Program-made: the position numbers and the translations under genes
Source: a virus
Taxonomy: Duplodnaviria > Caudoviricetes
Direction: 5' to 3' (one strand)
IMG/VR virus record: IMGVR_UViG_3300016667_000348
Location: 1-29,835 of that record
Length of the DNA: 29,835 nt
The notes under the pieces: generated by a model
What the model saw: only the letters and a program-made list of their open reading frames with translations
What the model was told of the DNA's origin: nothing
The model's database searches: none
In this document: positions 2,437-29,296 of the stretch, piece after piece
Layout: each line of letters starts with the position of its first letter
Numbering within the stretch: position 1 is the stretch's first letter

Positions 2437-2718
2437 CTAGTCGTCGATTTCGGGCGCAAGCCCGAACTGGTTGCGCAGGTCTGCCACGATTCCGTCGCAG
2501 GTGTCCATCGCGCGGTACATCCGAATGATGCGAGCCTGCGCCCGAATTTTCTCCTGCGTCGTCTGCGCGTTGTCCCGCATTTCTGCGGTCGCGCGGATTC
2601 GTTTGCTCAGAAGCTCGCGGATGGCAACAGCGCGGTCGAGCAGTGCGCTCTCCGATGCCGAGAGCGCCCATTCCGCGCGGTAAGGGTTGAGGTCCTCGTA
2701 GGATGCGCTGTGCATCAT
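2437..2718 (-). CDS. hypothetical helical protein (93 aa)
   Basis: AGGAGG RBS upstream of ATG 2718. Fills the operon between the upstream micro-ORF and erf. Confidence 0.75.
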   Translation of the reverse strand: MMHSASYEDLNPYRAEWALSASESALLDRAVAIRELLSKRIRATAEMRDNAQTTQEKIRAQARIIRMYRAMDTCDGIVADLRNQFGLAPEIDD

Positions 2719-2864
2719 TGTGATTCCTCCTGTCGGAATGAATTGACCGGGCGGTCAAGCGCCCAGTCGAAGCCGGCGGCCAGAGCCGCCAGCGCGATGG
2801 TGAGGGCCAGCAAGGCCGCGAGCGTTTCGCGGCGGCGCTGGCGGTTGCGGAGGGCGGAGTTCAT
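2715..2864 (-). CDS. 49-aa single-pass membrane peptide, first gene of the leftward operon (not in the ORF track)
   Basis: MNSALRNRQRRRETLAALLALTIALAALAAGFDWALDRPVNSFRQEESQ. GGAGA RBS, ATGA overlap with the next gene, basic N-terminus followed by a hydrophobic stretch. Confidence 0.75.
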   Translation of the reverse strand: MNSALRNRQRRRETLAALLALTIALAALAAGFDWALDRPVNSFRQEESQ

Positions 2865-2911
2865 TGAGGATTCTCCAGTTGATTGAGGCGGAATTGCCTG
2901 CTACGGAACGA

Positions 2912-2940
2912 ATGCTATACCCACGAATCGGGTATTGCAA
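2912..2940 (-). promoter_or_regulatory. leftward early sigma70 promoter with an operator-like palindrome in its spacer
   Basis: Minus strand TTGCAA-17 nt-TAGCAT. The spacer is covered by the inverted repeat ATACCC-acgaatc-GGGTAT (2917-2935). Confidence 0.75.
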
Positions 2941-2972
2941 CACCCCGAAAGAAAATAATTTCCGGATCCGTC

Positions 2973-3000
2973 TTGCGCAGGTTAATCGGCCTGCTAATCT
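2973..3000 (+). promoter_or_regulatory. rightward sigma70 promoter
   Basis: TTGCGC-16 nt-TAATCT with a TGn extended -10. An inverted repeat GCAGG-N8-CCTGC (2977-2994) overlaps it. The predicted +1 (~3006-3007) coincides with the first RNA helix. Confidence 0.6.
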
Positions 3001-3006
3001 ATCCGG

Positions 3007-3240
3007 GCTCCGGTGCGGAACGTCGGTGGTCGGAGCAGGTTTTAACCCCGTTACACGAGCGAGCCAGAGCGGGGGCGGTGGGCTGAGTCTAGCGCCGGGT
3101 GGTAGTCGGGGAACCGATGCAAGGCTGGACAGCGCGATGCGAGGAGGCGGCTCCGGAGAGCAGGCAACCTCGGGCGCAGGCGAAACTGTAGATCTCTCTA
3201 CGGTATAGGCTGCGCTCGGCTCAGAGGCTCACCAAAGAGC
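3007..3240 (+). ncRNA. candidate structured RNA (non-coding RNA or long structured 5' leader) of unknown family
   Basis: About 270 nt with no credible gene in an otherwise gap-free genome. At least seven compatible helices found by hand, including a 13-bp long-range closing stem (3077-3089 with 3218-3233) and a GGAA tetraloop hairpin (3105-3118). Confidence 0.65.
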
Positions 3241-3269
3241 AGGACTAAGACAGGAAATATAGGATCTCC

Positions 3270-3518
3270 ATGAAGTTATCCACAGATAGACGAAAACGGC
3301 CGCCGCTGCCTGAAACGCCTGAGGCTGCCCTGGCCTACTGGCTGGATGTCATTGGCATGCAGCAGAAACAGATCTGCAAAGAGATCGGAATCGCCCCGCA
3401 GAAACTGAACGACATGATGCACGGGCGCCGTCCGTTTGATGACCAGCTGCTAGACTGGCTCGGTTTCGAGCGCGTTACCATTTATCGACGCAAAAAGAGG
3501 CCATCTAATGCCGAATAA
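3270..3518 (+). CDS. Cro/XRE-like HTH transcriptional regulator
   Basis: GMQQKQICKEIGIAPQKLNDMMHGRRP HTH pattern. AGGA RBS. First gene of the rightward arm. Confidence 0.8.
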   Translation: MKLSTDRRKRPPLPETPEAALAYWLDVIGMQQKQICKEIGIAPQKLNDMMHGRRPFDDQLLDWLGFERVTIYRRKKRPSNAE

Positions 3519-3641
3519 AAAAACACCGCTGCGGACAAGGCCCGGAAGGATTCGTTTTGCGCCAGAATGGGCGCAGTGGCAGCGAAGGCTGAAAACGGCG
3601 AACGAGCGAAGGCTTCATTGAGGAGATGGAAATGCCCCTGA
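3508..3641 (+). pseudogene. frameshifted or truncated small basic phage protein ('SFCARM...SLRRWKC' type)
   Basis: Frame 3519-3641 reads [40 protein letters not shown] but has no start codon before the motif. The ATG at 3508 (AGAGG RBS) is out of frame by one base across an A7 run (3517-3523). Confidence 0.55.
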
Positions 3642-3763
3642 AAAAATCGGCGTCTGAGAAGGCGTTCAAGCAAAACATCAAGACCGAAATCAAATCCGGC
3701 AAACCGCCTAAACAGGCCGTTGCCATTGCCTACTCCGTGAAGCGCGAGGCAAAGAAAAAATGA
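3632..3763 (+). CDS. 43-aa Lys-rich phage protein ('KQAVAIA' type; not in the ORF track)
   Basis: [52 protein letters not shown] and ATGA overlap with the next ORF. Confidence 0.85.
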
Positions 3764-4331: not shown

Positions 4332-4510
4332 AATGCCGGGAAATGCACGACGTGCTGGCGTTTGTGATGGCGCAGCTGCGCACAGAAATCGAGTCGGCCG
4401 ACAAACAGGAGAGCAGAACCGCATGGCTGAACAACTCGCTGTTGCATTTGATCGAGGCCAGGCACGCCCTAGACCGCGCAGGAGCTCAAACGTGGGCTCG
4501 CGAGAGCTAG
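4328..4510 (+). CDS. small hypothetical protein (60 aa)
   Basis: GTGA overlap with the rusA stop. Fills the gap before the Q-like gene. Confidence 0.65.
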   Translation: MKCREMHDVLAFVMAQLRTEIESADKQESRTAWLNNSLLHLIEARHALDRAGAQTWARES

Positions 4511-4857
4511 ACCGTGGCCATGGGCGCCTACGGAACTGGGCCGACTGGGCACTGGCGTACAGCGCGCGCACCGGGTATCCGCAGGCCAGCGCGTTTGCCA
4601 GACTGTACCGGCCAGACGCCGGAGATGTCTGGGACGGCATCGAGCCCGACGAAACCAGAACCGTGGCCGACGAGCCCGATGCGGAACAGGTCGAACGGTT
4701 TGTGCGTCGGTTGCCACTGGCGAACCGGCGGGTCGTCATGTCGTTTTATATCGGCCGGGAGTCGCCTGTGGTAGCGGCCCGGCGGTTCGGGCATTCTCGA
4801 GAGCGATTCTATGCGTTGCTCGATGAGGCCGCAGCTTGGTGCGGCGAACTGGCGTAA
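4492..4857 (+). CDS. Q-like late antiterminator
   Basis: GTG at 4492 with AGGAG RBS. 'RLRNWADW' N-terminal motif and a C-terminal sigma4-like HTH. Lies directly upstream of a promoter-terminator pair and the late genes. Confidence 0.7.
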   Translation: MGSRELDRGHGRLRNWADWALAYSARTGYPQASAFARLYRPDAGDVWDGIEPDETRTVADEPDAEQVERFVRRLPLANRRVVMSFYIGRESPVVAARRFGHSRERFYALLDEAAAWCGELA

Positions 4858-4860
4858 CCG

Positions 4861-4888
4861 TTGCGCTGTTCGTTTTCTCGGTTACAAT
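4861..4888 (+). promoter_or_regulatory. late promoter (pR'-like)
   Basis: TTGCGC-16 nt-TACAAT immediately after the Q-like stop codon. Confidence 0.7.
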
Positions 4889-4918
4889 TCTCTCGGGGCG
4901 AAGCTATGCCCGAAATCT

Positions 4919-4941
4919 GCCGGCCATGTGCCGGTTTTTTT
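4919..4941 (+). terminator. intrinsic terminator (tR'-like)
   Basis: CCGGC-catgt-GCCGG hairpin followed by T7, about 45 nt downstream of the predicted start site. Confidence 0.75.
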
Positions 4942-4995
4942 GTTTCTGTGCCCGGAAACCCGGGCTGGGGGCATTGCAAATAGCAATGAACAGGA

Positions 4996-28599: not shown

Positions 28600-28626
28600 C
28601 GCCCGGGCCGTCCCGGGCGTTTTTTT
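28600..28626 (+). terminator. intrinsic terminator for rightward transcription
   Basis: CGCCCGGG-ccgt-CCCGGGCG followed by T7 on the + strand only. Confidence 0.8.
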
Positions 28627-29296
28627 ATCTGATTCGCGGCAGCGGGTCGCGGCGTTTCGCAAACCATTCTTCATCTGATTCTCGCTCCCCGCCCAGCGGG
28701 GTCCATTTAAGCGGCGAGGTTGATGGCGCATCCCTGATGATCTGTTTGGCCACCCGCGCCGACCATTGAGGCCAAGACTCGCCCTCGAGCCTCGGGTAAC
28801 GGTCGCGCATGAACTGCGGGCGCCATTTCATTATCGTCAGGTCGGTTGAGCGTTTGACCGACTCCTTCCACTCGGCGATATGGCAATCCCGGCACTGCGG
28901 TTTACCGAACCCATCAATCCCGATTGCATCCTGCCCGCATTTGCAGACTGCGGATGCGGCTGCCTCCTGCCGTTTCAGGTCTCCGCTGCCCTCGCGGACC
29001 TCGGCCTCGAACCGAAACTGATTGAGATAGGTCGACACCATCGGGAGGGGCGGCACGAACTTGTTAGGAACGCGCCGCGCGTTGCGGCGGTTGTTTGCGT
29101 GCAGCGCGTAGCCGTGCCGAACGGTCTGCGCGAACTTGGCCTCATCCTCGGCAATGCCCTCCTCCCTGCACCATTTGCGGCACGCCTTCTGCCACGCCTC
29201 AAACGCCTTGCGCTTGCTGCCCTTGGCGGTTACGTCCATGCGCTCGTCTTGACCATAGAGCGACCAGAAATCATCGAATGCCGGAGAGTAATTCAT
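28625..29296 (-). CDS. replication-initiator-like protein (C-terminal-type domain only) with a putative Zn ribbon
   Basis: Starts directly with FDDFWSLY...KGSKRKAFEAWQK and later P...STYLNQ.RFE, motifs of phage replisome-organiser C-terminal domains. Then CKCG...CRDC. GGAGG RBS. Confidence 0.7.
   Translation of the reverse strand: MNYSPAFDDFWSLYGQDERMDVTAKGSKRKAFEAWQKACRKWCREEGIAEDEAKFAQTVRHGYALHANNRRNARRVPNKFVPPLPMVSTYLNQFRFEAEVREGSGDLKRQEAAASAVCKCGQDAIGIDGFGKPQCRDCHIAEWKESVKRSTDLTIMKWRPQFMRDRYPRLEGESWPQWSARVAKQIIRDAPSTSPLKWTPLGGERESDEEWFAKRRDPLPRIR

Follow-up and report, generated by a model that had tools for sequence, protein, structure and literature searches.

Two accounts of ColE1 replication (PMC4412123, PMC5043065), in the parts that concern us, describe how RNA II forms a hybrid with the template, its rG stretch pairing with a dC stretch there, and how this persistent hybrid primes replication; the trigger of persistent hybrid formation is described there as still speculative (PMC5043065). 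The R-loop origins oriF and oriG of phage T4 are presented as a promoter plus an unwinding element, with no structured guide in that section of the account (PMC4412123). The phage element considered here shares features with both. Like RNA II as portrayed in those passages, it would give a non-coding transcript that folds and whose upstream stretch matches a downstream one and so can pair with the template, and it would depend on host polymerases; like the T4 origins, it has a phage promoter (here a predicted one) followed, by prediction, by a persistent RNA-DNA hybrid. The differences from RNA II are several. The element is about 235 nt long (RNA II, 550 nt) and belongs to phages, not a plasmid, and in place of an rG/dC stretch it has a copy of about 20 nt, in two blocks and of free sequence. 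ColE1-type replicons have an antisense RNA I over the 5' end, whereas the family has no Rfam RNAI match and no antisense promoter signal; and the ColE1 type has no element-encoded initiator, whereas 24 of 40 carriers of the family have a phrog_270 initiator.

The window, that is the whole 29,835-nt stretch that was analysed, is an IMG/VR phage record (IMGVR_UViG_3300016667_000348, 82% complete). The original prediction proposed a structured RNA in what it called the sole long gene-free stretch of this DNA, and 2865-3269 is indeed the longest gap between likely genes; the segments that it cited all lie where it put them. Two ORFs span the gap (2864-3208 and 2883-3086). Neither has a Pfam or PHROG match, and indels of 1, 2 and 4 nt cross them in relatives; on this comparison they are chance ORFs. 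Genes diverge at the element: ERF, YqaJ and SSB lie on the minus strand, with an initiator-like gene at the record's other end, and a small HTH gene, RusA, terminase, portal and capsid lie on the plus-strand side. The HTH gene is absent from the neighbours common to the family. A DUF6321-like gene (window 3508-3641) is missing about 130 nt that are present in two relatives (L001 and L002), and its conserved 3' half is out of the start frame. Further along, at 4861-4945, a promoter-like site and then a terminator stand immediately before the terminase genes, which resembles lambdoid late control; the ORF upstream of this site (4510-4857) has no Pfam match over cut-off.

Two predicted promoters, one in each direction, lie ahead of the element (Table 1). 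The leftward one scores under the promoter-scan threshold, and both of its boxes are invariant in two of two close relatives. The rightward one, from which the RNA had been proposed to start, is likewise under the threshold, but the positions of its TG-n-TA and its TTG -35 box are kept in three relatives (L001, L002 and L203). We infer that transcription would begin at about 3007.

Is the element peculiar to this phage? Three relatives reached via the HTH gene, the ERF gene and one pattern have an element that is better preserved than its flanks, with compensatory changes present, and two pattern scans place 3007-3243 in a family of about 310 IMG/VR stretches. Scanning with a 5'-loop pattern gave 120 loci of the approximately 310 estimated (113 passed a spacing filter and 7 were set aside), and scanning with an independent middle-region pattern gave 120 loci, again of about 310. 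These two locus sets overlap heavily: 84 of the 120 loci from the second scan matched the 5'-loop pattern too, and among the other 36 all the distinct sequences shown have the same 5' domain with loop variants. Combined, the scans yield 126 distinct elements; mean identity across 61 representatives is 0.60. A covariance model was built and run on whole carrier and ERF-related records. It found a single copy per record in 10 of 10 carriers, a second match in G022 being that record's terminal repeat, and no element in 34 ERF-related records. A pattern scan of metagenomes returned 22 loci, of which three are real and all from the window's clade, and a GTDB scan returned 82, of which three are real and lie on short MAG contigs from which the host is not identifiable; an earlier pattern scan gave chance matches only and no true members.

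No known RNA family had been recognised in the element, and this was borne out: at the gathering cut-off Rfam 15 gave no match in the window (best E 3.1 within 2700-3700), only two tRNAs, elsewhere, in 20 member loci, and nothing on the element in 20 further loci. BLAST of the element or of three member/leader queries against INPHARED, and of one query against PLSDB, found no family member. A published description of the family was not found in the titles and abstract openings searched, subscription journals lying outside their scope. The candidate viral RNAs of Fremin 2023 comprise 8,495 short DNA-virus models of 29-151 nt (PMC10690425). The readable supplementary tables of that work gave 0 matches to the element; given the length of the models, a fragment of the family may be among them. 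As far as sequence comparison goes, the family is real, conserved and uncatalogued.

The element always stands at the head of a same-strand gene block. The commonest neighbours at 88 loci are initiator (29), ERF (28) and terminase (21) genes, and portal-region and capsid genes are also found. The window's element had been tied to an early control region; this does not extend to its relatives, whose elements precede initiator, terminase, portal or capsid genes.

Helices were tested in 48 family members by comparing both-side changes with slid controls, and against a tree-aware null of our own in 73 anchored representatives (106 of the 126 elements were parsed, then thinned to <95% identity). 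P1, P2, P3, P4, P5 and P7 have both-side changes far over the slid controls in the 48 sequences, and in the 73 representatives ten Watson-Crick pairs beat the null maximum: four in P1, three in P4, two in P3 and one in P2. P1, which encloses a conserved 16-nt loop, P2 and the GNRA hairpin P5 of the original drawing thus hold up (Table 1). The multi-branch fold as a whole does not; it is replaced by a pseudoknot in which the crossing helices P3 and P4, plus a 3-bp pairing, take over. Both-side changes at P3 occur in 21 and 18 of 48 members (14 and 9 same-branch changes), and the P4 pairs that beat the null have 15-17 same-branch changes. The 3-bp pairing joins P2-loop bases 3063-3065 to 3098-3100 and is 100% paired in the 48 members; it changes on both sides once, from CG to UA in four of the 48, which amounts to two tree events and is not significant. 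Among the helices drawn earlier, TGAGTC/GGCTCA is paired in 46% of cells in the 48 members, and GCT/AGC and GCTC/GAGC are paired in 56% and 70% of cells with zero both-side changes. The proposed closing stem keeps an invariant GTGG/YCAC core, a candidate pairing, and loses the rest, its first G pairing in P3 instead. The stem of the long arm is supported, whereas its cap (1/6 to 3/8 pairs) aligns poorly. A candidate pairing of loop L1 with the 3' CACC fails, with an A-C mismatch in 11 of 73 and no compensation, and the potential pairings L1 TCG/CGA and L2 GAGC/GCTC are nearly invariant.

The GNRA-capped hairpin is optional, being present in 13 of the 48 members tested (its insert is found in 21 of 73 representatives), and its loops are mostly GNRA. 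A preference for GNRA loops is a trait of RNA, and these loops therefore favour RNA over single-stranded DNA. Folding of the plus strand gives -105.2 kcal/mol (z -2.13; 6 of 200 shuffles equally good) and folding of the minus strand z -1.13, so that by this check the plus strand is modestly unusual. Covariation and the GNRA loops support the claim of a conserved, structured plus-strand RNA, and we describe the element as a pseudoknot family with a predicted plus-strand RNA.

Table 1. Features of the element and its surroundings in the window
Feature	Position	Strand	Basis and remarks
Leftward promoter, predicted (TTGCAA-17-TAGCAT), for ERF/YqaJ/SSB/initiator operon	2912..2940	-	Sequence; relatives
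Rightward promoter, predicted (TTGCGC; TG-C-TAATCT), start near 3007	2973..3000	+	Weak consensus
P1	3007..3036 (3007-3013/3030-3036)	+	6/6 pairs with both-side changes; 4 beat null maximum
P2 with conserved loop	3046..3074 (3046-3052/3068-3074)	+	6/7 pairs covary
P3, crosses P4 to form pseudoknot	3076..3097 (3076-3078/3095-3097)	+	100% paired
P4, overlooked in the original prediction	3087..3130 (3087-3093/3124-3130)	+	Covariation
P5, optional GNRA-capped hairpin	3105..3118	+	5/5 pairs covary; compensatory change in public contig
Copy 1, predicted guide	3144..3164	+	X1 3144-3148, GGCTCC 3149-3154, Y1 3155-3164
Long arm P7/P8, between the two copies	3171..3218	+	P7 4/7 pairs covary, with alignment slips
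Copy 2, predicted target (template strand)	3224..3243	+	X2 3224-3228, TCACC 3229-3233, Y2 3234-3243
Small HTH gene	3270..3518	+	phrog_1468, E 5e-6; adjoins element only in window's clade
Replication-initiator-like protein, starts at C-terminal domain; possible partner	28625..29296	-	phrog_270 profile

The original prediction overlooked a co-varying direct repeat. In each member, the bases flanking an internal GGCTCC recur around the terminal YCACC. The window's two copies have an 8-mer in common (3157-3164 and 3236-3243) that occurs at no other plus-strand site and at one minus-strand site, 5646. For 48 of 53 representatives the longest stretch common to both copies reaches 6 nt or more, which 8% of cross pairs achieve; a member's own copies match over 7.6 nt, against 4.6 nt with the nearest neighbour member. 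In permutations the observed value of 402 compares with 204 +/- 9, and that of the X part alone, 169, with 122 +/- 5. Two identity pairs between the copies beat the tree-aware null maximum, and the Y columns have same-branch changes 9-15 times at six positions. There are 55 different Y2 8-mers among 73 members, Y2 being 80% purine, and in L543 both repeat cores are altered together. The spacing of the copies varies from 60 to 79 nt without three-nt periodicity, which excludes a mini-ORF between them and makes DNA-looping operators unlikely. Short variants (L444, L458, L321, L438, L454 and L462) keep P1-P4 and the arm and have the repeat core replaced; they still have a direct repeat, with 12/13 identical in L458, in a search that allowed one wobble direction only.

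Mismatches between the copies run largely one way. In the X2-5 and Y2-8 cells, with one bulge allowed (used in 13 of 73), the copies are identical in 701; copy 1 has G where copy 2 has A, or T where copy 2 has C, in 49, while 3 cells are of the reversed kind and 50 are transversions; counted as gains on the tree, the figures are 24 G/A or T/C against 3 reversed. The tree also has 34 transversion gains, which indicate loose pairing at X5 and in some few members that are divergent or mis-registered. At the edges, X1 is G/A in 53 and Y1 in 55 of 73 members, and a public contig has one further change of the G/A or T/C type. With copy 1 paired to the complement of copy 2, G/A and T/C differences would become wobbles, and the reverse pairing would tolerate the reverse; the one-way mismatches are thus what pairing of the internal copy with the 3'-end template DNA should leave. 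Of 43 loci, 4 contain the reverse complement of Y, and they have no common place for it (fetched flanks of 0.6-8 kb, and the whole window). Antisense promoter-like sites were found at 1 of 60 loci upstream and 3 of 60 downstream, against 27 of 60 with sense sites upstream; for the minus strand inside the element the promoter scan covered the window only. No match to the reverse transcriptase family RVT_1 was found in 41 records, a set in which 22 have a completeness of 90% or more. With no shared complement, antisense promoter signal or reverse transcriptase, the template DNA strand is the simplest partner, and we infer that copy 1 would pair with the complement of copy 2 in the form of template DNA, not of antisense RNA.

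Most members have, about 190 nt upstream of the element, a structured leader (for example L213 1310-1490) that is absent from the window. It consists of a strong promoter, a short hairpin, a long hairpin and a U-tract, exists in at least two sequence types and has no Rfam match; such a U-tract leader precedes the element in 66 of 71 members. Complementarity of at least 7 nt in the leader was seen in 13 of 66 members against 9% of cross pairs, which is a weak test. Three members (L274, L285 and L320) have an extra hairpin-rich insert of about 90 nt between leader and element. The same promoter/leader type follows a short initiator gene in L556 20370-20790 (MW202484.1 33473-33893), where it precedes a different folded stretch, whose last hairpin is bracketed by an 8-nt direct repeat; leader plus stretch fold with z -3.34 (0 of 100 shuffles). 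The stretch is perhaps an analogous RNA.

What might the RNA do? The reading that we favour, tentatively and as a possibility short of a probability, is that the predicted RNA pairs its internal copy with its own 3'-end template DNA and acts as an R-loop or primer RNA in the manner of ColE1 RNA II. The RNA would be transcribed from about 3007, copy 1 would pair with the template strand of copy 2 and hold an R-loop open, and the R-loop might serve as a replication origin or primer. More speculatively, the invariant TGG at 3079-3081 may keep copy 2 of the RNA itself out of the way, the hybrid may be processed by RNase H and Pol I of the host, and the short initiator may load helicase onto the displaced strand. 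This model gives no role to loops L1 and L2, which are highly conserved. Comparative sequence points to an upstream RNA able to pair with the 3'-end template, as in the ColE1 type, in a form that differs from rG/dC; the family is not a member of the ColE1 family but may work like one, via a sequence-free guide. A primer or origin role was one of four offered originally and has gained support, of an indirect kind. Another, put-like antitermination, is weakened because many members precede a new promoter or occupy very different places; the element does resemble the HK022 put RNA as a leader RNA heading a phage operon, but it is three times longer, pseudoknotted and position-independent, with a self-copy.

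The two copies could instead act during transcription. Copy 1 would invade the polymerase hybrid at copy 2 and cause a pause, termination or release, by which the RNA would control the genes behind it or set its own 3' end. Copy identity and mismatch direction would be explained equally well, and since the hybrid in RNA polymerase is 8-9 bp, Y is about as long as that hybrid. The place of the element, heading a same-strand gene block and mostly after a U-tract leader, fits too, as do the carriers with full-length initiators described below. We nevertheless think it unlikely: the short initiators would be left unexplained, a further promoter-like site lies directly downstream of the element in 14 of 60 members, and no U-tract follows copy 2. 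Antisense control from elsewhere is more improbable again. The c4 RNA of P1 and the CI RNA of P4 are antisense RNAs with paired, two-block targets, and both copies here might be targets of such a trans-acting RNA; like the P1/P7 c4 and P4 CI loci, this one has a structured phage RNA beside repeated short targets, the two-block repeats are similar to c4 targets, a ribosome-binding site is often overlapped by copy 2 and most members are preceded by a hairpin leader. The window, however, has no leader, no co-varying complement (flanks of 0.6-8 kb) or antisense promoter signal was found in the loci, and there was no C4-family Rfam match; moreover a common partner alone would not yield one-way mismatches, which point to one copy as the guide.

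A guide that cuts, joins or recombines at copy 2, whether catalytic or protein-assisted (a self-targeting ribozyme, a packaging or a mobility signal), would make sense of the compact pseudoknot core, in which many unpaired bases are invariant, of the fixed mismatch core between two guide blocks and of the many unrelated positions at which the element is found. IS110 bridge RNA and TIGR-Tas likewise have short guide blocks identical to the DNA top strand, but the target in the family is the RNA's own gene end. This reading is improbable in view of the lack of a common partner gene (the top neighbour is present at 29 of 88 loci, and no recombinase, Tas or nuclease was found among the 35 largest neighbour clusters scanned), of any joined form in one public contig set and of an Rfam ribozyme match, and a single copy per record speaks against a selfish element. 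Very improbable is a reverse-transcription template on which synthesis would leave copy 2 and resume at copy 1. A cDNA of copy 2 that annealed to copy 1 would leave mismatches of the direction seen, and the repeated template end recalls DRT2 and telomerase templates; retron, DRT and DGR ncRNAs have a linked reverse transcriptase, whereas none of the 41 family records has RVT_1, though a distant or host enzyme might act instead.

The R-loop reading gives a part to the phage initiator. The window's initiator-like protein matches phrog_270 profile positions 175-272 from its residue 3 and has E 1.5e-24 to our own short-initiator profile, which contains the same protein. Among the 40 carrier records, 24 have a phrog_270 match, of which 16 are short, C-terminal-only proteins and 8 full-length, and 16 have none; the window and G033 likewise encode a short, C-terminal-only initiator. 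ERF-related non-carriers have a match in 11 of 34 records, and all 11 match the N-terminal part. The N-terminal DNA-binding part, which from lambdoid initiators we take to be the origin-binding domain, is therefore missing from 16 of 24 carrier initiators and 0 of 11 in non-carriers, counts that are not independent, since roughly two phage clades supply the short initiators. That every carrier has a short initiator was rejected once whole records showed the 8 full-length ones, of which seven are DUF1376-type (Pfam-confirmed for two) and one is of another type. Iteron-like repeats are kept in the initiator gene of at least 4 of these 8, and those carriers may thus have an ordinary origin. The full-length initiators, and the 16 carriers with no phrog_270 match, count against the R-loop reading. 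In G016 the repeat words of the initiator gene recur around the RNA, at 170-190 nt before the model start and about 300 nt beyond it; such flanking iteron words are not general in the 11 records compared.

MW202484.1, reached through its protein, has a short initiator and lacks the family RNA, which also counts against that reading; a weak model match in it (E 0.12) was discarded, since the site falls within a plausible ORF and shuffles fold equally well. Short proteins of this initiator-like kind are widespread (783 clusters of 66-212 aa at E 1e-10), and the predicted fold of the short initiator has no Foldseek or sequence match in the PDB. T4 encodes its own polymerase; PolA was found in 0 of 41 carrier records and integrase in 2 of 41. 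GC3 skew is uninformative here, being weak as well as confounded with the direction of the genes (19/23).

Taken further, these observations suggest, as a rather doubtful proposal, a class of self-guided RNA origins in which a compact pseudoknotted RNA with a freely rewritable 20-nt guide opens duplex DNA at the end of its own gene; in whole phage clades such an RNA would have taken over from the initiator's DNA-binding half. If true, this would explain origin choice by phages that have a short initiator and no polymerase. To our knowledge, RNAs that read DNA through base pairs normally depend on a dedicated protein (Cas, TnpB, IS110 or Tas), and among the systems compared we found no apparent counterpart to a sequence-free guide of this kind. 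Here, across hundreds of phage sequences with no common partner gene, the comparative signal points to an RNA that pairs with its own DNA. At 235 nt, and with 55 guide variants supplied by nature, the system lends itself to simple swap-and-rescue designs, and if the RNA acts in trans it would be a protein-free, RNA-guided device for opening DNA.
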